Under the pieces are notes generated by a model. The model had not been told where the DNA came from and made no database searches. It worked only from the letters and a program-made list of their open reading frames with translations. A stretch of DNA of 64,000 nt from Patescibacteria group bacterium (GTDB lineage Bacteria; Patescibacteriota; JABMPQ01; JAQVVF01). A program made the translations under genes and the position numbers. Shown here in pieces: positions 38,193-54,621 of the stretch; positions within the stretch are counted from its first letter, which is position 1, and each line of letters starts with the position of its first letter. The stretch is from contig JAQVVF010000004.1 of assembly GCA_028699085.1 (NCBI GenBank), forward strand, positions 2,143-66,142. The letters are read 5' to 3'.

Positions 38193-38918
38193 ATGGTTAG
38201 CATTGTTTTACCGACCTATAATGAAGTCGATAATTTCAAAAAAATAGTTCGCGAAATATTAACTGTTTTTCGAGATAATAATATTAATGGCAATATTATT
38301 ATTGTTGATGACAACTCTCCTGATCAAACAGGAGTAATGGCCCAAAGACTAAGTGAAAATATGCCCAAAACGCTCTATGTAATCAACAGAGAAGCAAAAA
38401 TGGGATTAGGATCCGCATATATCGCTGGATTTAAAAAAGCACTCTTCTTGGGCGCTGATTATATTTTTGAAATGGATGCTGACTTTTCTCACAATCCGCA
38501 TAGCATCCCCAGTTTTTTAAAGGCAATGAAAGATTCAGATCTAGTTATTGGCTCTCGTTATATTAATGGCGGCTCAACTAAAAATTGGGAACTTTATCGA
38601 AAATTAATTAGTCGATTTGGAACATTATATGCTAAAACAATCCTAAAACTTGAAATTAATGATCTTACTTCCGGATTTCGTTGCTATAAACGCCAAGTTT
38701 TAGAAAAAATCAACCTTGATCAAATTCAGTCTGATGGTTATTCTTTCCAAATTGAAATGGCTTTTAAAACAAAATTAGCAGGCTTTAAAATAAAAGAAAT
38801 ACCAATTGTCTTTGCTGATCGCAAAAATGGTATTTCAAAATTCTCTAAAAAGATATTTTGGGAAGCATTTACTGTTGTGTGGAAATTAAGATTTCAAAAT
38901 AAGGAAATAAAAAACTAA
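38193..38918 (+). CDS. Polyprenol-phosphate mannose/hexose synthase (GT2, Dpm1-like)
   Basis: VSIVLPTYNEVDN...IIVDDNSPDQTG and DADFSHNP motifs typical of Dpm1/Ppm1. Would supply donor for GT-C enzymes. Confidence 0.75.
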   Translation: MVSIVLPTYNEVDNFKKIVREILTVFRDNNINGNIIIVDDNSPDQTGVMAQRLSENMPKTLYVINREAKMGLGSAYIAGFKKALFLGADYIFEMDADFSHNPHSIPSFLKAMKDSDLVIGSRYINGGSTKNWELYRKLISRFGTLYAKTILKLEINDLTSGFRCYKRQVLEKINLDQIQSDGYSFQIEMAFKTKLAGFKIKEIPIVFADRKNGISKFSKKIFWEAFTVVWKLRFQNKEIKN

Positions 38919-39427
38919 TCTATCATTGCTAACAAATTGCCACATTTTTCGCATAACTTTGCTTCCTTAAGATCAGTATCAAGAATATTATTAGAAAAAT
39001 GCATTGGACATTTTTTATCTGGGCAATGGGATAATCCAAAATTATGGCCTAATTCGTGGATTGACTCTTTCAAAACCCTATTTGCAAATAATTTTTTATC
39101 CTTATCATGCAATCTAAATGTCGAAACAATGCTTTGTCTGCCTGGACAATCGCCTTGTCCAAAAATATAATTATATTCCAAAGCATATAGATCTTTATCA
39201 GTTACTATTAAAATTTTCTCCAAATCCTCAAATTCAATTTTCTGCATATCTAATAAAATTTTTTCTGCATCATATTGTTTCTTCTCTGGATTAAAAGCAA
39301 AATCAGGCACATCAACTGGCCCGATTTTTTTTATCCGAAAGTCAAAAATTTTCTGTAAGCCATTTTCAAAACCTATCCAATCAAAATTATCAACCTTGCC
39401 AGCTTCAAGAACATAAACACTATTCAT
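38915..39427 (-). CDS. Archaemetzincin-like zinc metalloprotease
   Basis: HELGHNFGLSHCPDKKCPMHFSNN...CEKCGN matches the archaemetzincin HExxHxxGxxHCx4CxMx17CxxC signature. Confidence 0.7.
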   Translation of the reverse strand: MNSVYVLEAGKVDNFDWIGFENGLQKIFDFRIKKIGPVDVPDFAFNPEKKQYDAEKILLDMQKIEFEDLEKILIVTDKDLYALEYNYIFGQGDCPGRQSIVSTFRLHDKDKKLFANRVLKESIHELGHNFGLSHCPDKKCPMHFSNNILDTDLKEAKLCEKCGNLLAMID

Positions 39428-39436
39428 AAAAATTAT

Positions 39437-42001
39437 TTATTGCTTCATATTATCAATATCCATCAAAGTAATTGTATACTCACTTCCTCTTTTAATCTCA
39501 CCAGTTAACATTTTCTTTGCCAAAATATTTTCAACATAATTTTGTATTGTACGCATGATTGGTCTTGCGCCCATCAAAGGATCAAAACCAAGCTCTGCCA
39601 ATCTCTCAATCCCAGGCTCATCAACTCTCAAAAAGATCCCTTTTTCTTGCTCTAATCTTTTGACTAATTTGCCTAACAACATCTTTGTAATTTGCAAAAC
39701 ATGCTCTTTTTCCAAAGGCTTAAAATATACAACAGAAGTAAATCTATTCAAAAATTCTGGCCTAAATATTCCTTCTGCTTGCAAATAATTAATTAGCCTT
39801 TCTTTTAATACAACTGGATCAAGATGTTGTTTTATTCCTTCTTGAATTAAATTAGCACCAGCATTAGAGGTTGCAATAATCATTGCATTATTAAATTTTA
39901 CTTTTCTGCCCAAAGAATCAGTTAGCCATCCTTCATCTAGCATTTGCAAAAACAAATTTAAAATATCTTTATGCGCTTTTTCAATTTCATCAAATAATAT
40001 AACTGTAAAAGGATTATCTTTTACTGCATTTGTTAATTCTCCGCCAGCTTTGGCTTCAGGAGTACCTGGAGGAGGTCCAATCAAACGGTAAACGCCAGAT
40101 AAATCTTGATATTCCGACATATCAAAACGAATCATTGATTTTTCTGAACCAAAATATGCTTCTGCCAATGCTTTTGTAGTTTCAGTTTTTCCAACACCAG
40201 TCGGACCTAAAAATAAAAAACTACCAACTGGCTTATTTCCTGCTTCAACACCAGACCTAGCCCTTCTTAATGCATTAGAAACAACTTTAATCGCCTCCTC
40301 TTGATCAACTACTCGCTTGTGCAAAAAATCCTCTAGATGCAATAACAATTGTTTTTCCGCACCTTCAGCCTCGCCAATCGGTGCCTTAACTTTTTTCTTC
40401 ATTAATGTCTCCACATGTCTCGGCAATACGATTGTTCCTCGACCAAATGCAGATGCAAATACGATTACTTCATTCAATAAATCAATTGCCTTTTCCGGAA
40501 AAGGCTTTGAATACAAAAATTGATCAGCTAATTTGTAAATCGATTTTAAAGCTGGATAACTCATAATTACTCCTCCTTGAGATTCTAACTTTGGAGCTAA
40601 GTCTTCTAGAATTCTTAGGGTTGTATTCTCATTTGGTTCAGCTATATCCAGAATCTCAAATTTGTCAGAAACTGCTGATCTTGTTTCTATGTATTGATGA
40701 AAGTCATCAGAATTTGCCGTTGAAACAAAATATAAATTTGGATTTTCCAAAAATGGCACTAAGACTTGAGAAGCATCAATTGATCCAACCTTTCCTTCTC
40801 CACTTCCAAATAACTTTTGGATATTATCAATAAACAAAACAATATTTCCTGCAACAACAGAATCAGACATTACGGCCTCTAGTCTTTCTATAATCTCGCC
40901 TGGAGTCTGCGCTCCTGCCAACAGCCTATCGACATCCAATTCAATCAGTCTTTTATTAGCCAAACTAGAATATGTAGTTCCTTCTAAAATTCTTTTTGCC
41001 AAACCCAAAACAACAGTTCTTTTACCAACGCCAGGAGCGCCAACTAAAATTATATTGTGATGAGTTGCTCGAACAAGGACATCCTCAATTTGATTAATAT
41101 CTTTTTCATGACCAATAATATGAAAAGAAAGCGCACCTCTCAATATTTCATCCGTTAAATCATGGCCAAACGCTCTTAAAGCTCTCGTGTAGCCATAAGC
41201 CCATTCTCTACCGATGCCACCTTTTCTTTTTATCTTGTCTGGATCAAAATTCTTCTCTTTTCTAAATTTATAAAAAGATGTTTCCCAATGGACAATATTA
41301 GCAATGTCTTCAATTTTCAAATTCAAATCAAACAAAATCTTTTTCATTAAAGGATCAAGAACAGACAATACAACGAAAACATCACCACAGCTAACTATTT
41401 CATGCCCCTCTAAATAACCCACTTCCAAAGCTTTTTCCAATATTTGTGATAAATCAACATATCCTTTTGATTTTCCTGATGCATATTTTTCAACATGTTT
41501 TTCTAAATCTATAACGCTTAAACCAGTACGATTGACAATAAATCTTATTGATTTTACTTTCAACAATTCCAATAGTAAATCAGAAGAATTAACCATGTTA
41601 TTCTTTTTGTCTTCACTCTTCTTCAAGGCATTAGAAATCGCAATCGCTAAATTTATTGACACAAAATCAGCCAGATTTATGTTTCCATTTTTCTTCGCAA
41701 TATCCAAAGCATCTTTTAAGGAAATTATTGGCTTTACATTTTTTACTCCAGATTCATAAAAAATATGGAATGACAGATAGAATAAAGAAATAGCTAGACT
41801 AATAATCGCCAATCCTAACATCCTACTATTAAAATTCAAATTATATAAACTTGAAAAATTATACAAAATGACAAATGCAAAAGAACATATTCCAAGTAAA
41901 TATACAAAAAAAGATAATATTTTAAATATAAAAACTCTTAAGAATTTTACTAATCTTGAATATCTAAAAATTTTAGATTTTCCTTCATCAAATACAATCA
42001 T
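39437..42001 (-). CDS. Membrane-anchored Clp/Hsp100-family double AAA+ ATPase (no M-domain, degenerate D1 Walker B)
   Basis: Two N-terminal TM helices and a Clp_N-like repeat region. D1 Walker A GAPGVGKRT with Walker B VLFIDNIQ (N replaces the catalytic E). D2 Walker A GPTGVGKTE with intact Walker B ILFDEIEKAH. Sensor/arginine-finger regions present. No coiled-coil M-domain and no IGF loop. Confidence 0.8.
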   Translation of the reverse strand: MIVFDEGKSKIFRYSRLVKFLRVFIFKILSFFVYLLGICSFAFVILYNFSSLYNLNFNSRMLGLAIISLAISLFYLSFHIFYESGVKNVKPIISLKDALDIAKKNGNINLADFVSINLAIAISNALKKSEDKKNNMVNSSDLLLELLKVKSIRFIVNRTGLSVIDLEKHVEKYASGKSKGYVDLSQILEKALEVGYLEGHEIVSCGDVFVVLSVLDPLMKKILFDLNLKIEDIANIVHWETSFYKFRKEKNFDPDKIKRKGGIGREWAYGYTRALRAFGHDLTDEILRGALSFHIIGHEKDINQIEDVLVRATHHNIILVGAPGVGKRTVVLGLAKRILEGTTYSSLANKRLIELDVDRLLAGAQTPGEIIERLEAVMSDSVVAGNIVLFIDNIQKLFGSGEGKVGSIDASQVLVPFLENPNLYFVSTANSDDFHQYIETRSAVSDKFEILDIAEPNENTTLRILEDLAPKLESQGGVIMSYPALKSIYKLADQFLYSKPFPEKAIDLLNEVIVFASAFGRGTIVLPRHVETLMKKKVKAPIGEAEGAEKQLLLHLEDFLHKRVVDQEEAIKVVSNALRRARSGVEAGNKPVGSFLFLGPTGVGKTETTKALAEAYFGSEKSMIRFDMSEYQDLSGVYRLIGPPPGTPEAKAGGELTNAVKDNPFTVILFDEIEKAHKDILNLFLQMLDEGWLTDSLGRKVKFNNAMIIATSNAGANLIQEGIKQHLDPVVLKERLINYLQAEGIFRPEFLNRFTSVVYFKPLEKEHVLQITKMLLGKLVKRLEQEKGIFLRVDEPGIERLAELGFDPLMGARPIMRTIQNYVENILAKKMLTGEIKRGSEYTITLMDIDNMKQ

Positions 42002-42049: not shown

Positions 42050-42424
42050 TTATCTAAGATACATAATACCAAACACAATTCCTTCGACTAACAACATCGG
42101 TAATAATAACCAAATAACTATCACCGATACTTCAAAACAAAGTAAAACCGAAAAACAAATTAAAAAAATCAATAGAGTTATCGATTTAATAACAAAACCG
42201 AACATCCTTGCAATCATATTTCCTCCCCAAACACCAAATCTTTCCTGCAAACTCATTCCTTCAGTCGAAACTACATCTCTTTTCCACGGCGCAAACAAAG
42301 TCGTTAAACAAATCCTTACTGAAAAAGTATCAGTCAAAACCAAAATAAATGCTCTTAAATATTTAAGCATTCTAATTAAACCATAAGAATACCACCATTC
42401 AATATAATCCAAAAAAATTTGCAT
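42050..42424 (-). CDS. Small polytopic membrane protein, unknown function
   Basis: About 4 TM helices. Operon position between the BON gene and the Clp gene. Confidence 0.4.
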   Translation of the reverse strand: MQIFLDYIEWWYSYGLIRMLKYLRAFILVLTDTFSVRICLTTLFAPWKRDVVSTEGMSLQERFGVWGGNMIARMFGFVIKSITLLIFLICFSVLLCFEVSVIVIWLLLPMLLVEGIVFGIMYLR

Positions 42425-42430
42425 TTTGTT

Positions 42431-42664
42431 TTATATTTTTTCTATTTGCAAATCATTATTAATTAATGCAACGCCAGGAATATCAGAAATTGTATCTTCT
42501 AAATCTTGTTTTTCCTCTAATGTTTCTACTGTCCCTGATAATGTCACTTTGCCTTCATTTACCTCAACGTTAACATTATCAGTCATTATGTCTTCTTCCT
42601 CCAAAAACGCTTTCTCAATATCCTGATAAATATCTTTATCAGAACGGTTTACAAAATCAGACAT
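42431..42664 (-). CDS. BON-domain protein
   Basis: VTLSGTVETLEEKQDLEDTISDIPGV is the BON domain pattern. 77 aa. Confidence 0.6.
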   Translation of the reverse strand: MSDFVNRSDKDIYQDIEKAFLEEEDIMTDNVNVEVNEGKVTLSGTVETLEEKQDLEDTISDIPGVALINNDLQIEKI

Positions 42665-42741: not shown

Positions 42742-44016
42742 CTACCAAGTCCAATTATTAAACCCCCAACGAAGCAACTTCTCAACTTCACTTGTCACTT
42801 GATAGTACGTAGAAGCTCCAATTACAACCGCAATTATTTCTTGATTATTTTTATCTCTTGCCTTGGTCATCAAATTCATTCCAATTTCTGGCAAATAACC
42901 TGTTTTTCCACCTAAAATATAGAGATTACTATTCAATAACGAATTTGTATTAGTAACACTAATTGTTTTACCTCCCAAGGTTTGATAAGAATAAGATTTT
43001 GTTGTTGATGCCTGCATAATTTTATATTTTTTCAATGCATCAATAGCAACTTTTGCATAATCTTTAGGAGTACAAGCATTCCGCCAATCCAAACCAGTTG
43101 GTTCATAAAAAGTACAAGAATTAGCTCCGACTTTTTTTGCTTTCTCATTCATTTTAACAGCAAAATTTGCATCACTCATTCCTGTTGCATGCGCTAAAGC
43201 ATTGGTTGCATTATTTGCTGATTTTACTAAAGAAGTATACAGCAAATCTTCAATTCTAATTCTATCTCCGACAGATAACCAAACACTCTGGCCTTCTGCA
43301 TCATCCCAAGGCTGATAAGTATAAATTTTATTTAAATCAATTCCAGACTCTAAAACAATATTGGAAGTCAAAATTTTTGTCATCGAAGCTAAAGTCATTT
43401 TTCGATCACAATCTTTGCAATACATTATTTTACCAGATTTAACATCCATCAATACTCCTCCTAAAGAATATATATCTGGGTCAGAAACGCCAGCTTTTTT
43501 AGTTGGCTCGACAATACTCGTTTTATTTTTCTTTTCTAAAACGACAATGTCTAGATCTTCAATATCAGTTTTAATAATTGCTAAATCTTTTTTGTCATCG
43601 ATTCTGCTTTTTAATTCATTCCATCTATTCTCATCAAAATCCCAATAAAATACGCCCTTTTTATTAAATGTCTGTGAATTAAATTTTAATAAAATTTTAA
43701 CCTTGCCTAATAAAACAAAATCATCAGTCTCATTAGAAATCTCATAACGATAGATATTACTGATTGCTTTGTAACCTGTAGGAATTCTATGCTCTTCTTT
43801 CGCTATTTTTTTAAACTTAATACTAATCTGTTCAGCATCAATCAAATTAGCTGGTATTTTTATTTTTACTCTCTTTGATTTGTTAAAAATTTGCTGAGAA
43901 ATAGCTAAATCAGTACTAGATAAATTATGGATTAATCCCCAATCATTTACCTTGGAATAGCCAAAATTAGGCAATATTAGCAAAAATCCCAGGATCAACA
44001 ACAGCTTTTTTTTCAT
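42742..44016 (-). CDS. D-alanyl-D-alanine carboxypeptidase (S11, PBP5-like) with N-terminal extra domain
   Basis: SxxK (LASMTKIL), SxN (KSANNA) and KTG (GGKTGY) motifs. Signal peptide. Confidence 0.75.
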   Translation of the reverse strand: MKKKLLLILGFLLILPNFGYSKVNDWGLIHNLSSTDLAISQQIFNKSKRVKIKIPANLIDAEQISIKFKKIAKEEHRIPTGYKAISNIYRYEISNETDDFVLLGKVKILLKFNSQTFNKKGVFYWDFDENRWNELKSRIDDKKDLAIIKTDIEDLDIVVLEKKNKTSIVEPTKKAGVSDPDIYSLGGVLMDVKSGKIMYCKDCDRKMTLASMTKILTSNIVLESGIDLNKIYTYQPWDDAEGQSVWLSVGDRIRIEDLLYTSLVKSANNATNALAHATGMSDANFAVKMNEKAKKVGANSCTFYEPTGLDWRNACTPKDYAKVAIDALKKYKIMQASTTKSYSYQTLGGKTISVTNTNSLLNSNLYILGGKTGYLPEIGMNLMTKARDKNNQEIIAVVIGASTYYQVTSEVEKLLRWGFNNWTW

Positions 44017-44137: not shown

Positions 44138-44644
44138 ATGGATCTGAAAACTTTCATCTGTGTCGTCTTGTTTGTTGCCGGATTCGGTAGTTTGATTGCT
44201 TACGCTGATAATAATGATGTTGATCGTCTAATCTGTAACGGTGAACAAATTTGTATGCAAGAAATGCAACTTGGGAAAATTGACGAAAGGTTGGAAAGCG
44301 CCAGAGCTGATCTGCAGATGGCTGATAAAGCTTTGGGACAGATGATCCACTATGATGGCATTTGGCCCAAGACTGAAGAATCTCGGGACTGGTATCAAGG
44401 AAAACGCGGACTTGTTTGTTCCACCAATCGCAAAACAAAGCGTGAGATTCCCGTGGTTGAAAGAGATCTCAAAACTCTTCACTTTTCAAACCATGCTGGA
44501 ATTTCTAATCGCGCAAAACTAAAACTAGAAGACATTCAAACTGATCCAGTAATCAAATTCTTCCTCACTGATACGCCATGTCAGCGAGCTGAACAAGCTT
44601 GCAAGCACTTTGGCTGCACAGAGATTATCGAAGGCTCTTTGTAA
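44138..44644 (+). CDS. Secreted Cys-rich small protein, compositionally atypical (about 45-50% GC)
   Basis: Signal peptide MDLKTFICVVLFVAGFGSLIAYA. Six Cys in the mature part. Own promoter, SD and terminator. Segment GC is about 50% versus about 30% background (counted on 60-nt samples). Confidence 0.6.
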   Translation: MDLKTFICVVLFVAGFGSLIAYADNNDVDRLICNGEQICMQEMQLGKIDERLESARADLQMADKALGQMIHYDGIWPKTEESRDWYQGKRGLVCSTNRKTKREIPVVERDLKTLHFSNHAGISNRAKLKLEDIQTDPVIKFFLTDTPCQRAEQACKHFGCTEIIEGSL

Positions 44645-44645
44645 C

Positions 44646-44670
44646 TAACGCTATTCTTAGCGTTTTTTTA
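44646..44670 (+). terminator. Rho-independent terminator immediately after the Cys-rich gene
   Basis: AACGCTA-ttct-TAGCGTT followed by TTTTTTT, starting 2 nt after the stop codon. Confidence 0.6.
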
Positions 44671-44734: not shown

Positions 44735-45457
44735 TTATCTTTCTTCAATAATCAGATCAGAATATTTTTGCTTTAATTTACTTAATAACAACGCCACATC
44801 AATCTTTTTACTTTGATCTAAATTAGGATCTAAATTTTTAATATATCTAATATTCTGCAGATAATATTTTTCGCCTTTTTTCAAATAGCTTGCCATTTCC
44901 ATAAAATCTTTTTCAACATGCTTCTGAGGATATACAGTTGTTCTAAATTCATGATCAACTCCAGATTCCTGAATTAATCTAAAAGATTTCAGACATTTCT
45001 CCACCAATAATTTACAACTATCAACTGGCAACTTGTTACTAGCAACAACCTCACCATAATTTTGCCAAGAAGATTTCAAATCCATTGCTACATAATCAAG
45101 CAATTTTTTATCAAATAGTTCTTTTAACATCTCTGGATTTGATCCATTCGTATCCAGTTTCACTGAATAATCAATCTTTTTTAACTTCGCAATAAAATCA
45201 ACTAAATCAGTTTGCAAAGTTGGCTCTCCCCCAGTTATACAAATCCCATCTAACATTTTTTTCTTTTCAACCAAATAGCCAAGGATTTCATCCTCGGTTA
45301 TTTGTGATTTATTTTTATTATCAAATACCAATTCTGGATTATGACAGAACGGACATCTAAAGTTGCATCCTTGCAGAAACACTATTGCGCAAATCTTGTC
45401 TGGGTATTCTAACAGGCTCAATTTTTGGAATCCCGCTATTTTCATAGCTATTTTCAT
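44735..45457 (-). CDS. nrdG: Anaerobic ribonucleoside-triphosphate reductase activating protein (radical SAM)
   Basis: CNFRCPFCHNPE radical-SAM cluster motif. Adjacent to nrdD. Confidence 0.85.
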   Translation of the reverse strand: MKIAMKIAGFQKLSLLEYPDKICAIVFLQGCNFRCPFCHNPELVFDNKNKSQITEDEILGYLVEKKKMLDGICITGGEPTLQTDLVDFIAKLKKIDYSVKLDTNGSNPEMLKELFDKKLLDYVAMDLKSSWQNYGEVVASNKLPVDSCKLLVEKCLKSFRLIQESGVDHEFRTTVYPQKHVEKDFMEMASYLKKGEKYYLQNIRYIKNLDPNLDQSKKIDVALLLSKLKQKYSDLIIEER

Positions 45458-47255
45458 ATTTTAAATTCTTGATTTCATATTCTTTGCGTTCTGAATACTC
45501 GCTTTGCTTACCTTTATTCCATTGTGAAACAGGCCTAAAATACCCCATCACTCTCGACCAAACTTCACATTCCTTTTCACAAATTGGACAATGCTTTTGC
45601 TCTCCATTCAAATAGCCATGTGTTGGACAAATACTAAATGTAGGAGTCATTGTAAAATATGGCAAACGATAATTTTCAGCAATTCTTTTTACCAAATCTC
45701 GACAGACTTTCCAGTTCATAATTCTTTCGCCTAAGAACATATGTAATACTGTTCCGCCCGTATATTTAGTCTGCAAATCATCTTGGTGATCAAGTGCTTC
45801 CATCGGATTATCCGTATAACTAACTGGTAAATGAGTAGAATTAGTATAATATGGTGCATCTTTTGTTCCAGCCTGAATAATATCTGGATATCTCTTTTGA
45901 TCTTCTTTGGCAAAACGATAAGTTGTTCCTTCCGCTGGAGTTGCTTCCAAATTATAAAAATTATTTGTTTCTTCTTGATAATCAGCTAGTTTTTTTCTCA
46001 TAAAATCTAGCACTTCAACAATAAATTTCTTTGATTCTGAATGAGAAATATCCTCGCCTAAAAAGTTAAGACATGCTTCGTTAGATCCATTTATGCCAAT
46101 TGTTGAAAAATGATTATGTAATGACCCAAGATAGCGCTTTGTATAAGGCAATAATCCTTTTTCCATATTTTCTTCAATCACTTTTCTTTTCATTTCCAAA
46201 GAAATTTTCGCTAAATCCATCAATTTTGCCAGCCTTTGTAAAAAGTCTTCTTTTGTTTTTGCTAAATATCCAATTCTTGCCAAATTGATTGTTACAACTC
46301 CGATACTGCCAGTCATTTCTGCAGAGCCAAATAAACCTCCGCCTTTTGCCTTTAATTCACGCAAATCTAGTTGCAATCTGCAACACATACTTCTCACGTC
46401 TGAAGGCTTTAAACTTGAATTTAAGAAATTCTGAAAATATGGAGTGCCATATTTAGCTGTCATTTCAAATAATAATTTCACGTTCTCGTTTTCCCAATCA
46501 AAATCTTTTGTAATATTATAAGTCGGAATTGGAAATGTAAAAATTCTACTTTTATTATCGCCTGTAATCATAGTTTCAATAAAAGCTTTGTTCACCATAT
46601 CCATTTCTTTCTGACAATCGCCATATGTAAAATCAACAACTTTTCCACCAATAACTGGCTTTCTTGTTCGCATATCTTCAGGACAGACCCAATCCAAAGT
46701 CACATTTGTAAATGGAGTCTGCGTTCCCCATCGAGATGGAACATTTAGATTAAAAACAAATTGCTGAATATTTTGTTTTACTTTTTCATAATCTAAATTA
46801 TCAATTTTTACAAATGGAGCTAAATAGGTATCAAAAGATGAGAAAGCTTGTGCGCCTGCCCATTCATTTTGCAATGTTCCTAGAAAATTAACCATTTGAC
46901 CCAAGGCTGTCTCTAAATGCTTTGCTGGTCCTGATTCAACTTTTCCCGAAACACCATTAAAGCCTTCTTCCAAAAGCTGTCTAATGCTCCATCCAGCGCA
47001 ATAACCTGAAAACATATCCAAATCATGAATATGATAATCACCATGAATATGAGCTTGTCCAACTTCCTTTGGATAAATCTTGTGGAGCCAATAGTTAGCT
47101 ACAACTTTTCCAGCAGTATTCAAAATCATACCGCCTAAAGAATATCCTTGGTTTGCATTAGCTGAAACTCGCCAATCCATTTTTCCTAGATATTCGTCAA
47201 TTGTTGACAAAACATCAACATTAATCTCTTTTTTTGTTTGTGTGTTTTCTTTCAT
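45357..47255 (-). CDS. nrdD: Anaerobic ribonucleoside-triphosphate reductase (class III)
   Basis: C-terminal Zn ribbon CPICEKEC and glycyl-radical motif RVMGYF. Overall length. Overlaps the annotated nrdG start by about 100 nt. Confidence 0.85.
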   Translation of the reverse strand: MKENTQTKKEINVDVLSTIDEYLGKMDWRVSANANQGYSLGGMILNTAGKVVANYWLHKIYPKEVGQAHIHGDYHIHDLDMFSGYCAGWSIRQLLEEGFNGVSGKVESGPAKHLETALGQMVNFLGTLQNEWAGAQAFSSFDTYLAPFVKIDNLDYEKVKQNIQQFVFNLNVPSRWGTQTPFTNVTLDWVCPEDMRTRKPVIGGKVVDFTYGDCQKEMDMVNKAFIETMITGDNKSRIFTFPIPTYNITKDFDWENENVKLLFEMTAKYGTPYFQNFLNSSLKPSDVRSMCCRLQLDLRELKAKGGGLFGSAEMTGSIGVVTINLARIGYLAKTKEDFLQRLAKLMDLAKISLEMKRKVIEENMEKGLLPYTKRYLGSLHNHFSTIGINGSNEACLNFLGEDISHSESKKFIVEVLDFMRKKLADYQEETNNFYNLEATPAEGTTYRFAKEDQKRYPDIIQAGTKDAPYYTNSTHLPVSYTDNPMEALDHQDDLQTKYTGGTVLHMFLGERIMNWKVCRDLVKRIAENYRLPYFTMTPTFSICPTHGYLNGEQKHCPICEKECEVWSRVMGYFRPVSQWNKGKQSEYSERKEYEIKNLKYENSYENSGIPKIEPVRIPRQDLRNSVSARMQL

Positions 47256-51093: not shown

Positions 51094-54000
51094 TTAAGCT
51101 ACTTTCCTAACTTCATAACATCCATCTTTAATTTCATAACCATTAAAATTTAATGATGATTTTAATTTAACAACTTTTTCATCACTCGCCTGAGATTTTA
51201 CATAAGTATTAATTTTTTCACGATTACTCGTAGTTCCAGGTACACCAGTCACCAAAACTGATTTTAATTTTCGTCTCTTAGCAATTTTAGCCGCAGCATT
51301 ATAAACTTGCTCACAGAAACTGCTTGCCTGCAATTTATTCAAATATTCATCTCTTGGATTATTTGCCCGAACAATCAAATGACCTTCTCTCTCTATCAAA
51401 ACTACTCCGCCAATTATTTGACGCTTTTGCGGATCATTAGGATTAATCACAAATTTACAAGGCACTGCTTCTGGCCAATTTTTTAGCATTTGATCAATCC
51501 TAGTATAACAAGCTTCTGAATAATAACCACTTAATTCACCAACAAATCCACGATCTGGAATCATCGAAATTTCTTCCTGACTTCCTTCCAACGATGCTTC
51601 CATTCTCTGCATTGTTTCCACCATGTTATTCATTGTCAAAATTTTTCTCAAACGTCCAAAATCCTGAGCCGACGGCATCCAATCACCAAAATATTTTCTA
51701 GCTTCTTTTTTGGAACCTTTCAATACATGGTCTTTCAAAACATTCATTGTAATATCACGAACAAATTGAGCGCCTTCCAAATAAACTACACTATTATTTT
51801 GCATTGGCAATGGCAATTGTTCATAGCCAGAATGATTTGTCATCGCTTTATGAAATAATATTCTACGCATAAATGGCGATGTAAAATCATTCTCTTTCTT
51901 AATATTCAAACCCTCTTCACAATTCAATAGCGCTCGCAAAACATCATCCATCGAAGAACTGCTTTTTACTTTTGCCAATCCTGCTTCTAATACATCTGCT
52001 TTCTTTCTCATCGCTTTAAATCTTGCCTCATTAGCAGTTGTTAAATCCAAAGCACCTAATTCTTGCTGCCACATTTCAGCTATTTCATTCTTCATTCTAT
52101 CCAAGCCCTTTGCTTGAGTTAAATCATAAGCTCCCAAAAGATCTTGGCGAAAACGGCGATATTCTGCTACTACCTCTGGTCGTTGCAACGAATCCAAATT
52201 ATTTTTTACTCTTTCTACTTTCAAAGTCATAGTCTCATATCCAGCTGGCAGTTCTTTTATCTCGCCTTTATTTTCAGCCTCTGCAAATTGTCTATATACT
52301 GTTTCTAAATTTTTATCTGGCCTCGCCCACCTGCTTGTGTTAAACATTGTTCCAACTGCCAAAACATCATAATCAAAAGGCGTCATTTTTTCTGGAGATG
52401 GCAAATTACCGCTAATCAGATCTTCCTTGATTTGCAAAAGCCTAGTTTCCATTTCTGCAACCGAAGTCATTTTGTCTGCTATTTGCTCTGCTGGCAAAAC
52501 TTTTAATTCTCCTCTTTCCACTTTCTGCAAATTAGTAAAATACTGGTATAAACGCGGTGTCTGTTCTAAACCAAAACGCCCTACAAAAGCAGAAAAATCT
52601 GTAATTCCGCTTGCTGATAATTCGAAACCACAATCTTGATTACTTAAATAAACAAGATATGGCCGGACTTTATCATTTGCTGATCCAGTCAAAGCTTCCG
52701 GATAACGCCCTGTTACTTTTACCAATTCATCAAAAGCCTCAGGCGCTAATAACAAACGATATTGCTCTAATGAAAAAATTTGGACAACTTCTTTGGGAGT
52801 AAAAGCCATTGCATCCAGAATCTCTCGATCACTTTGATTTACAAAATCAGGATTCAATCTCGCCAAAGAATAATCAAAACCTTTACCTTTCTGCAATGAA
52901 TTAAAAACCATTACTCTAAGTTGTGTTTTACTTGGTCCGACTCCTAGTAATTCTTTAACTTTCTCAACTTCTGTTTTATTATTTTCTAAAGACGAGTAAA
53001 TCCTATCAATTTCTCCCTGCGTTAAATCCAAGTTCTTTACAATTTCTTGATCCGATAGATCCTTGAATTCTGGATTCATTCGCGCCAAAGCAAGAGCCAT
53101 TTCACCTTGCTGACTACCTAGTGATCTTATTAAACTTTCGCTCAATAATTTTTTACTAGGAGGCATTCCATATCGTTCATTCAATGTATTACAATTATTC
53201 ATTATTTTCGCCTTCTTTTCAGCCGGTAAAGTAAGTTGTTCTTGATCGTCTTGATGCTTAAGAATCAAATCACTATAAACTCCACTATAAAAATTTGCAT
53301 AAGCTAAATCAATTATTCTAGCTCTAGCTTCCTGATCCACGCCAAATTTTTCAATAAATCGATCTAATTTTTCAAAACTAAAATTATTATCTTCTACAAT
53401 ATAACGTAATCTAGCATCAATGATCTTATCAATCATGTTTCTGGAAATCCATTCTGCTTTTATCTGCCCTTTATCAACTGCTTGATACAGATAGTAATAG
53501 TCTAAAGGATCTATATATCTATGCTCTTCAGATTCTTTTTCAAGGCTTGCAACCATCTTGCCAACATAACCTTTCTGCTCATCTTCCGGCAAAGCTCCAA
53601 ATTTATCTTCAAAAAAATCCAAATTTTTTATTATCTTCTTTTCACTATATTGTTCAAACAATACTGTCTTTACATTATCAGGTATCTGATCTGGGAATTG
53701 GTCTGGATCCAGACCGGCTAAAGATTTCAAATCAACGCCATCTCTAATTACCGCTTCTGCAATTCTTAAAATATTTTCTTTTGGGTATTGCCAATGAAAC
53801 CAATGTCCAGTTTTAACTCTCTCCCTTGCCAAAACAGAAGGAGCCTTCTGGAGTAACATTTGCTCATACTCTTCTCTCATCTCATCATCATATTCTTGTT
53901 TACCATGTTTTTGTTTTGTTTCTTCATCAGCCATCATTGAAATTTGTCTAACACAAGATTGCATCAACGTTTCTCCAGTTTCAGTAAACCTTATTACTGG

Positions 54001-54621
54001 TTCATACTTCGATTTATAACCTTCTAAACCTCGATAAAAATTTACCATTCCATCAAAATTTTCAGCTTTTTTTAGCTCTAAAAATCTATTGAATAAAGAA
54101 TCATGCATCTGTCTTTGGACACCATCCCAGCTAATTCGATCAAAATCACGCTTATTTCTTCCATAATATGTTTCAATAACACTTTTTCCAAATCTAGGAA
54201 ACTTTAATTCCGAATATCTTTCAGCCCATGAAGCTTTGTCATTATAAATTTTCAAAGCCTCATCTAAATTACCACTTTTTAATAATCTTCTGATTTGTTT
54301 TACAGCACCGATATATTCTTTGGCTCGCTGTCTATTTTCAACATATTCTGATATTTTCTTTTCAAAACGACCATAAACAGTTTTTGCTTTTTCAGCAATA
54401 CCAGCTAATCTTCCTTTTGTTTTTTCATCAACAGAACTCTCATGGCTCTCAGCCACTTTTTCCGCAGATGACAAACCAGTTTCCTGGAGATTATCAACCC
54501 GCTGTCTCGCTTGTTCTAATCTCTGCTCCATTAATTTTTCAGGACTTAATTCTTGCTCCTTCTTTTTTTGTTCTTGTTGTTTTTCATGCTCCAAAATCGC
54601 AATATCTTCTTTACCAATCAT
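51094..54621 (-). CDS. Large (1175 aa) cytoplasmic protein of unknown function with internal repeats
   Basis: Long uninterrupted ORF. No signal peptide, P-loop or known catalytic motif. Internal ~37-aa repeat (LARMNPEFKDLSDQEIVKNL... and LARLNPDFVNQSDREILDAM...). GC about 35%, slightly above neighbours. Confidence 0.5.
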   Translation of the reverse strand: MIGKEDIAILEHEKQQEQKKKEQELSPEKLMEQRLEQARQRVDNLQETGLSSAEKVAESHESSVDEKTKGRLAGIAEKAKTVYGRFEKKISEYVENRQRAKEYIGAVKQIRRLLKSGNLDEALKIYNDKASWAERYSELKFPRFGKSVIETYYGRNKRDFDRISWDGVQRQMHDSLFNRFLELKKAENFDGMVNFYRGLEGYKSKYEPVIRFTETGETLMQSCVRQISMMADEETKQKHGKQEYDDEMREEYEQMLLQKAPSVLARERVKTGHWFHWQYPKENILRIAEAVIRDGVDLKSLAGLDPDQFPDQIPDNVKTVLFEQYSEKKIIKNLDFFEDKFGALPEDEQKGYVGKMVASLEKESEEHRYIDPLDYYYLYQAVDKGQIKAEWISRNMIDKIIDARLRYIVEDNNFSFEKLDRFIEKFGVDQEARARIIDLAYANFYSGVYSDLILKHQDDQEQLTLPAEKKAKIMNNCNTLNERYGMPPSKKLLSESLIRSLGSQQGEMALALARMNPEFKDLSDQEIVKNLDLTQGEIDRIYSSLENNKTEVEKVKELLGVGPSKTQLRVMVFNSLQKGKGFDYSLARLNPDFVNQSDREILDAMAFTPKEVVQIFSLEQYRLLLAPEAFDELVKVTGRYPEALTGSANDKVRPYLVYLSNQDCGFELSASGITDFSAFVGRFGLEQTPRLYQYFTNLQKVERGELKVLPAEQIADKMTSVAEMETRLLQIKEDLISGNLPSPEKMTPFDYDVLAVGTMFNTSRWARPDKNLETVYRQFAEAENKGEIKELPAGYETMTLKVERVKNNLDSLQRPEVVAEYRRFRQDLLGAYDLTQAKGLDRMKNEIAEMWQQELGALDLTTANEARFKAMRKKADVLEAGLAKVKSSSSMDDVLRALLNCEEGLNIKKENDFTSPFMRRILFHKAMTNHSGYEQLPLPMQNNSVVYLEGAQFVRDITMNVLKDHVLKGSKKEARKYFGDWMPSAQDFGRLRKILTMNNMVETMQRMEASLEGSQEEISMIPDRGFVGELSGYYSEACYTRIDQMLKNWPEAVPCKFVINPNDPQKRQIIGGVVLIEREGHLIVRANNPRDEYLNKLQASSFCEQVYNAAAKIAKRRKLKSVLVTGVPGTTSNREKINTYVKSQASDEKVVKLKSSLNFNGYEIKDGCYEVRKVA

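Follow-up and report, generated by a model that had tools for sequence, protein, structure and literature searches.

Hsp100 proteins are the textbook case of polypeptide threading mediated by tyrosine (Tyr) residues. Among other two-ring AAA+ proteins, NSF (D2) and PEX1/PEX6 (D1) divide their labour between a catalytic ring and a structural ring that serves assembly. To our knowledge no Hsp100 with a naturally dead first ring (D1) has been described to date, and a literature search found none. Torsin is a Clp-related AAA+ protein that associates with the membrane through an N-terminal hydrophobic region, has no aromatic pore loops and has the membrane-spanning cofactors LAP1 and LULL1 (PMC5425593); it is thought not to thread (PMC5425593). 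Here we describe a two-ring, Clp/Hsp100-like ATPase with an N-terminal membrane anchor, together with a small membrane protein encoded directly upstream of it (the partner), in a 64-kb window of contig JAQVVF010000004.1 from a Patescibacteria group bacterium (64,000 nucleotides, ~30% G+C). Our preferred reading, to which we assign a probability of roughly 60%, is that the ATPase belongs to an undescribed, Patescibacteria-wide subfamily of class-I Hsp100 proteins that would act as a membrane machine driven by the second ring (D2), scaffolded by D1 and equipped with an obligate small subunit.

The gene and the regions of its product are arranged as follows (TM, transmembrane).

39437..42001, minus strand: gene of the membrane-anchored two-ring Clp/Hsp100-like ATPase, 854 aa, ATG start
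41861..41947, minus strand: TM helix 1, residues 19-47; Kyte-Doolittle 19-residue peak 2.59; AlphaFold2 helix 24-53
41756..41818, minus strand: TM helix 2, residues 62-82; Kyte-Doolittle 19-residue peak 2.05; AlphaFold2 helix 59-86
41216..41731, minus strand: diverged double Clp_N-type N-domain, residues 91-262, from profile-profile comparison
40442..41116, minus strand: D1 AAA+ module, degenerate, residues 296-520
40400..40465, minus strand: short D1-D2 linker at the site of the M-domain in ClpB/ClpC, residues 513-534 (22 residues)
39467..40366, minus strand: D2 AAA+ module, catalytic motifs intact, without pore-loop Tyr, residues 546-845

The N-terminus forms a hairpin of two TM helices. A first-pass annotation of this DNA had predicted such a pair, and the hydropathy peaks and AlphaFold2 helices bear it out, as do the hydrophobic N-terminal segments of 115 of the 120 relatives described below; the other five proteins, at 522-773 aa, are shorter and seem to lack part of the N-terminus. 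Downstream of the hairpin the Kyte-Doolittle hydropathy never exceeds 1.61. Residues 1-22 carry many Lys and Arg (K8, K10, R13, R16, K19 and R22), which by the positive-inside rule would place both the N-terminus and the body that follows the hairpin in the cytoplasm. The hairpin is therefore predicted to tether a cytoplasmic ATPase body to the cytoplasmic membrane. A possible origin of the hairpin as a diverged copy of the partner was considered and rejected (hhalign probability 0.5%).

The remainder of the protein has the Pfam layout of a class-I Clp/Hsp100, with AAA (317-431), AAA_lid_9, AAA_2 (590-756) and ClpB_D2-small (763-843) all above the gathering score; the same four domains are found in 30 of 30 relatives scanned. 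Clp_N is not detected by Pfam in the ATPase or in these 30 proteins. Aligning its N-domain with the N-domains of 53 canonical Clp proteins gives an hhalign probability of 97.6% (E 3e-12, 131 columns). The AlphaFold2 model (predicted local distance difference test, pLDDT, 87; predicted TM-score, pTM, 0.82) was compared by Foldseek with the protomers of ClpC, ClpB and ClpA, giving target-normalised TM-scores of ~0.83, the ClpC structures being best. The place of the ATPase in the Clp/Hsp100 superfamily (class I, two-ring) is clear.

A homology search gave 290 proteins at E <=1e-10, and all family counts refer to the best 120 of these 290. Nearly all of the 120 are 820-870 aa long, and their taxon names, where given, are Patescibacteria lineages or just 'bacterium'. 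A genome scan, whose alignment drew on D2 motifs common to all Clp proteins, returned canonical ClpB, ClpC or ClpA from other phyla at about 70 of 80 loci. These were used as controls and not as relatives, and 64 canonical Clp proteins from the scan were aligned with the family. The motifs of the query, placed by HMMER alignment to solved ClpB structures, are as follows.

41015-41041, minus strand: D1 Walker A, GAPGVGKRT; canonical GVGKT is GVGKR, the Mg-ligand Thr being replaced by Arg
40889-40918, minus strand: D1 pore loop, AGAQTPGEII; canonical KYRGEFE is QTPGEII, no Tyr
40823-40840, minus strand: D1 Walker B, VLFIDN; N393 at the position of the catalytic Glu
40655-40672, minus strand: D1 Arg-finger site, VSDKFE; canonical ERRF is SDKF, both fingers gone (RR to DK)
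40184-40207, minus strand: D2 Walker A, GPTGVGKT; invariant in 120/120 relatives
39986-40000, minus strand: D2 Walker B, ILFDE; invariant in 120/120 relatives
39743-39763, minus strand: D2 Arg finger, RPEFLNR (R753); invariant in 120/120 relatives
40034-40081, minus strand: D2 pore loop, IGPPPGTPEAKAGGEL, where the controls have IGAPPGYVGYEEGGQL; no Tyr

The corresponding positions across the family and the controls are occupied as follows.

D1 Walker A Thr/Ser: 1/120 in the family (Lys 74, Arg 37), 63/64 in the controls
D1 pore-loop aromatic: 0/120 in the family, 62/64 in the controls
D1 Walker B Glu: 55/120 in the family (N 26, D 22, G 8, H 5), 64/64 in the controls
D1 first Arg finger: 1/120 in the family, 64/64 in the controls
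D1 second Arg finger: 4/120 in the family, 64/64 in the controls
D2 pore-loop Tyr: 0/120 in the family, 64/64 in the controls
D2 Walker B Glu, sensor-1 Asn, Arg finger and sensor-2 Arg: 120/120 each in the family

The change of the D1 Walker B from DE to DN was the point of departure of the first-pass annotation, and the alignment confirms it: 'ivlfidniqklfgsg' of the query lies ungapped over 'vilfidelhtvvgag' of ClpB in HMMER, which puts N393 where every control has Glu. Close relatives share the loss, so that a sequencing error is not at issue. The 17 listed relatives at >=50% identity have DN (10), DG (2), DH (5) or NN (1) and never DE. Distant relatives often retain DE. DN itself is a clade-level state, in a family with a D1 that is also degenerate at several further sites. 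Four features were absent from that annotation: the replacement of the D1 Walker A Thr by Arg, the loss of the D1 Arg fingers, the loss of both pore-loop tyrosines and the conserved upstream partner.

The best NCBIfam matches of the ATPase are ClpB and ClpA and its best PDB sequence match is ClpB, as would be expected of an ordinary ClpB, ClpC or ClpA orthologue. Every equivalog score, however, lies far under its cut-off: for ClpB 525.2 against 1232.1 (TIGR03346) and 455.9 against 1417 (PRK10865), for ClpA 471.1 against 993.15 and 358.5 against 1350, and for TssH (ClpV) 416.5 against 884.95. No type VI secretion system genes were seen among the annotated neighbours of the examined loci, and the NCBIfam exception models for ClpG/ClpK score 410 and 398 against a cut-off of 1900. 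The defining motifs are missing as well. At the pore loops the query has QTP for KYR of ClpB (D1) and GTPE for GYVG (D2), and the residues of a competent D1, GK[ST], DE and RR, found in 63/64, 64/64 and 64/64 controls, are GKR, DN and DK. The statement in the first-pass annotation that the protein is not a canonical ClpB, ClpC or ClpA is correct by these scores and motifs. A decaying pseudogene or assembly errors could in principle produce such deviations in one gene, but the reading frame is intact and the identical deviations recur in 120 independent relatives in which D2 is strongly conserved (majority-residue column conservation 0.74 for D2-large, 0.59 for D1, 0.48 for the N-domain and 0.44 for the TM region). 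This recurrence shows the deviations to be conserved rather than products of error or decay, and an explanation by ordinary orthology, pseudogene or misassembly, to which we give almost no credence, is counted as refuted.

The M-domain (ClpB residues 398-540) has no counterpart in the query, where residues 513-534 stand in its place. This 22-residue linker, compared with ~80 residues in ClpC-type controls, agrees with the earlier description of a missing M-domain, and linkers of 19-30 residues occur in 120/120 relatives. Because the M-domain is lacking, no coupling to DnaK is expected. The segment following D2 sensor-1 is ClpB-like in length. The ClpP-docking tripeptide [ILMV]G[FLM], present between sensor-1 and the Arg finger of D2 in ClpC/ClpA-type controls, occurs neither in the query nor in the 120 relatives, as had been noted for an IGF/LGF loop. 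No ClpP, FtsH or Lon signature was found by regular expression in the 64-kb window, a search that is uninformative for the rest of the genome.

Compared with ClpB/Hsp104, the ATPase shares the two AAA+ modules with ClpB_D2-small, the length of the D2 segment after sensor-1 and the absence of a ClpP loop. It differs in lacking the M-domain and both pore-loop tyrosines, in its degenerate D1 and in having gained a membrane anchor. With ClpC/ClpA it shares the double Clp_N-type N-domain, the overall protomer fold and a short D1-D2 linker like that of ClpA, but not the IGL/VGF ClpP loop, the ClpC M-domain, UVR or the pore-loop tyrosines, and again D1 is degenerate. These motifs identify the protein as neither a ClpB disaggregase nor a ClpP partner, and it is probably not a classical threading unfoldase.

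D2 retains GPTGVGKT, the DE of Walker B, sensor-1 N713, R753 and sensor-2 R813, all present in 120/120, and is predicted to be catalytically intact, as first proposed. D1 should be unable to hydrolyse ATP in the normal way. With Arg in place of the Walker A Thr, and with neither of the trans Arg fingers left, D1 has the appearance of a degenerate scaffold ring. It does retain K327, the Lys of the P-loop, and D392, the Asp of Walker B, and nucleotide binding by D1 is therefore possible. The extent of decay differs between lineages, given that in the Saccharibacteria members (L004, L005, L021 and L027) the D1 Walker A is still a canonical GK[ST] and the Walker B often DE, although neither the Arg fingers nor the pore-loop tyrosines of either ring are left.

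The first-pass annotation saw in the DN substitution a natural counterpart of the substrate-trap mutation: a membrane-bound holdase or unfoldase whose D1 binds ATP, cannot hydrolyse it and forms a 'trap' ring in which substrates are held as D2 does its work. The Asn at the aligned position of the Walker B Glu, the retained K327 and D392, the Lys conserved at the second Arg-finger position in the query's clade (xDKF/xEKF) and the intact D2 are all consistent with this, and NSF D2 offers a precedent for a ring that binds but does not hydrolyse nucleotide. The analogy presumes a D1 that binds Mg-ATP, however, and is not supported at this point: for the Mg2+-ligating Thr of Walker A the query has Arg and 111/120 relatives have Lys or Arg, and the Arg fingers are gone. 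Holding or unfolding further presumes a grip in the central pore, and neither ring has an aromatic pore-loop residue that could retain or thread a polypeptide; this is so for the query as for 120/120 relatives, most of which also have a gap at the D2 loop. Of the two halves of the proposal, the lack of normal hydrolysis stands, and binding is left as a possibility. The trap ring survives in this weakened form and we consider it unlikely. NSF and PEX1/PEX6 resemble the ATPase in placing one inactive ring beside a catalytic ring; they are soluble proteins of the classical AAA clade, with pore-loop aromatics still present in the active ring.

The pore loops also bear on a second alternative, in which the protein would be a processive motor for extracting or unfolding membrane proteins, like Msp1 or FtsH, and would grip its clients through non-aromatic loops or through the N-domain and the partner. 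The anchor would put the entry face towards the bilayer, as in FtsH and Msp1, and D2 has all residues of a working motor. In the query's clade, moreover, the D2 loop is conserved at full length as GTPEA[KE]AGG, the canonical GYVGYEEGG being GTPEAKAGG in the query. Against such a motor, 96/120 relatives have a six-residue alignment gap at D2 pore-loop-1 (the canonical GYVGY site), the D1 loop is variable and acidic across relatives, and the D2 Tyr is present in all 64 canonical threading relatives; we regard it as quite unlikely. FtsH is likewise a bacterial AAA+ protein anchored by two N-terminal TM helices, but its single AAA module is of the classical clade, has an aromatic pore loop and is fused to an M41 peptidase. 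The ATPase has two Hsp100-type modules and no peptidase domain in Pfam, and hence no fused M41.

Three further TM-anchored Clp-like proteins with a degenerate D1 and no pore-loop Tyr, L003 (344-2851), L038 (8001-9860) and L055 (8001-9542), lie on contigs of 47-54% G+C from metagenome-assembled genomes labelled 'uncultured Gammaproteobacteria'. The L003 protein carries an N-terminal CxxC...CxxC zinc ribbon. The partner gene was not detected in L038 or L055. Either the family reaches beyond Patescibacteria or these bins are mislabelled.

The gene upstream of the ATPase provides the remaining part of the argument.

42050..42424, minus strand: partner, 124-aa membrane protein, 48 bp upstream of the ATPase on the same strand, annotated 'hypothetical protein'

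The partner has no match in Pfam, NCBIfam or PADLOC. In loci whose ATPases are relatives at 38-70% identity, genes of 124-132 aa without Pfam match likewise lie directly upstream of the ATPase. Their products are homologous, with W10, F34, S35, T42, W47, N69, R73, G76, W105 and P109 invariant. Of 16 distinct Patescibacteria loci, spanning 31-70% ATPase identity, 15 have the partner directly upstream, and one gene intervenes in the remaining locus. A partner profile has no match beside the canonical Clp genes of the genome scan, and its sole match outside the recognised family loci is a fusion protein (L073:2257-4716). In this and three further cases, P0284 (824 aa), the incomplete P0322 and P0385, the partner precedes a family-type ATPase as an N-terminal fusion. 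Fusions of this sort are a classical sign that the joined proteins work together. The ATPase is genetically coupled to its partner. Clustering of the partner family at 90% identity gives 835 clusters; at 50% identity there are 1402 representatives, and every given name is 'hypothetical protein'. The AlphaFold2 model of the partner (pLDDT 87.7) is a helical hairpin. We infer that it would be a stoichiometric membrane subunit of the ATPase, whether as anchor, adaptor or regulator.

The TM hairpin, the degenerate D1, the Tyr-less D2 pore and the upstream partner are all present in the window and across the relatives. A literature search found no description of a membrane-anchored Hsp100, of the ATPase family or of the partner. 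The ATPase family and its partner thus appear to be an undescribed two-gene module found across the Candidate Phyla Radiation (CPR), defined by its D1, D2 and TM features together with the partner upstream.

Transposon sequencing of the saccharibacterium Southlakia epibionticum includes a likely orthologous pair, matched by size, Pfam coordinates and synteny. SEML1_0700, an 'AAA family ATPase' of 860 aa, contains AAA (276-381), AAA_2 (544-706) and D2-small (713-792) (PMC10633639, Table S1). SEML1_0701, a hypothetical protein of 127 aa, overlaps the start of SEML1_0700, and a divergent murT is adjacent (PMC10633639); the position of murT beside the pair is the same synteny as in L005. Both genes were called NE, NE, GD over passages P0 to P2, and normalised reads fall from 4124 to 1638 for SEML1_0700 and from 258 to 51 for SEML1_0701 (PMC10633639). 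These matching calls, like the adjacency and the fusions, are indirect evidence for a putative physical complex of ATPase and partner. The organism also has a canonical ClpC (SEML1_0512, two Clp_N and UVR) and ClpP (SEML1_0493), both non-essential (PMC10633639). As these coexist with the pair, the family would be an additional paralogue and not a replacement, at least in Saccharibacteria.

The genes flanking the pair in the window are as follows.

42742-44016, minus strand: S11 D-Ala-D-Ala carboxypeptidase/endopeptidase, with an N-terminal extension of ~170 aa without domain match; heads the gene string
42431..42664, minus strand: BON-domain protein, 77 aa, 6 bp upstream of the partner; Pfam BON E 1.3e-14
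38915..39427, minus strand: archaemetzincin (peptidase M54), 170 aa, 9 bp downstream of the ATPase; Pfam Peptidase_M54 E 7e-28

The order S11 peptidase, BON, partner, ATPase and M54 recurs in whole or in most part in L090, L091 and L081. BON is in the same position in L081 and L090 and is missing from L091 and from distant loci. BON domains are usually periplasmic or membrane-binding; this stand-alone BON protein has no obvious signal peptide or TM helix. A promoter-like site lies ahead of the BON gene at 42728-42700, in a promoter and terminator scan that overall is not above chance. The BON gene is probably a clade-specific member of the operon, whose boundaries are unsupported by that scan.

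The M54 gene occupies the same position in L081, L090 and L091, which raises the question of whether, in this clade, the ATPase and the peptidase together make up a split AAA+ protease resembling FtsH. ATPase followed by M54 is the order kept in four loci (the window, L090, L091 and L081) at 51-100% ATPase identity, and the peptidase retains HExxHxxGxxH (HELGHNFGLSH) and passes its NCBIfam cut-off (157 against 145). The link is missing from every more distant locus, however, and a docking motif is neither known nor found. The flanking GT2 glycosyltransferase and PEP-utilisers are equally syntenic in the same loci, so the adjacency may be mere conserved gene order; a split protease is a slim prospect. 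The 3' end of M54 overlaps by 4 bp the end of the convergent GT2 gene (38193-38918, plus strand).

An anti-phage defence role as an AAA+ component was rejected, PADLOC giving only partial, generic AAA-domain matches (PDC-M37B, DolB, TRIP13) for the ATPase and no match for the partner, BON or M54 proteins.

A more general tendency of the neighbourhood concerns the cell envelope. The S11 peptidase adjoins the module in the window and in L090, murT adjoins the pair in L005 and an LCP-family gene does so in L004. In four independent loci the partner-ATPase pair lies upstream of mraZ-rsmH-ftsL-ftsI, directly so in L001 and L083.

L001, 10712-14062: pair and division cluster
L083, 7621-11481: pair and division cluster
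L087, 10737-12541 (L087/88): pair and division cluster
L089, 8709-11973: pair and division cluster

The link to cell-wall and division genes is recurrent but loose, a weak clue and the only one to the cellular role.

Further upstream in the window are the putative genes of NrdD (45357-47255) and a radical-SAM activase (44735-45457), both on the minus strand, whose listed open reading frames (ORFs) overlap by ~100 bp; they are named after NrdD/radical-SAM Pfam matches upstream of the pair in L082 and L092. An ORF of 168 aa (44138-44644, plus strand) whose product has a signal-like hydrophobic segment at its N-terminus and contains several Cys is the sole plus-strand gene in a long minus-strand run and is followed by a terminator-like hairpin at 44647-44664. 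GC skew is persistently negative from ~24 kb on, in line with the predominance of minus-strand genes. An ORF of 1175 aa lies at 51094-54621, and no tRNA or tmRNA genes were found in the 64-kb window.

The reading that we prefer for the ATPase and its partner can be put as follows. The ATPase would assemble into a ring like those of its relatives and turn the N-domain/D1 face to the membrane. In this ring D1 would be a non-catalytic scaffold for assembly and D2 the only motor, and the partner would be the membrane subunit of a machine that operates without DnaK or ClpP. Membrane-associated clients would probably be remodelled or released by an ATP-driven conformational change, not by processive, Tyr-mediated threading. 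A non-threading mode is favoured because the pore-loop aromatics are missing, as in Torsin, while canonical relatives thread by Tyr. Most speculatively, the clients might come from cell-envelope or cell-division biogenesis.

Torsin offers the closest functional analogy, without implying membership: both have a membrane tether, no aromatic pore loops and a membrane cofactor. Torsin has a single AAA+ module and no Arg finger of its own, receiving one from a cofactor with a degenerate AAA+ fold. The ATPase has its own invariant D2 Arg finger (R753), carries the degenerate D1 in the same chain and has a small helical partner.

Several points weigh against the preferred reading. The oligomeric state and orientation are taken by analogy from relatives. 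The query's clade keeps a full-length D2 loop, so that some pore function may persist, and about half of the family keeps the D1 Glu, with GK[ST] in Saccharibacteria, so that D1 may not be equally dead everywhere. The TM topology of the partner is ambiguous between hydropathy, AlphaFold2 and the fusions, some of which add one extra hydrophobic segment and one (L073) none. The S. epibionticum pair was matched by features other than sequence. The envelope link is one of gene neighbourhood in small, compact genomes and possibly coincidental, and other loci have unrelated neighbours (NrdD/G, ribosomal L10/L12, and TatC, with tatC in L027). The fullest version of the proposal, a two-component, non-threading, Torsin-like membrane AAA+ machine made of a TM-anchored, dead-D1 Hsp100 without pore-loop aromatics and a dedicated 125-aa membrane subunit and acting in envelope or division biogenesis, is tentative, and we would sooner bet against it than for it. 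If true, it would give bacteria a counterpart of Torsin and its cofactors and add a new mechanistic class to the Hsp100 proteins.

The family is a large natural one in which an active D2 is under strong selection, while the pore tyrosines, the D1 site, the DnaK-coupling domain and the ClpP loop have been discarded and an anchor and a subunit gained. As such it offers a test of how far an Hsp100 ring can function without threading. The name 'Clp protease ATP-binding subunit' is probably wrong for thousands of CPR genes that carry it, and at least 1400 'hypothetical protein' clusters are now tied to a specific ATPase partner. The system is open to study in the genetically tractable Saccharibacteria, where the likely orthologues share a mild fitness defect. 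A bacterial analogue, being simpler, could also throw light on the mechanism of Torsin, which is not yet settled.

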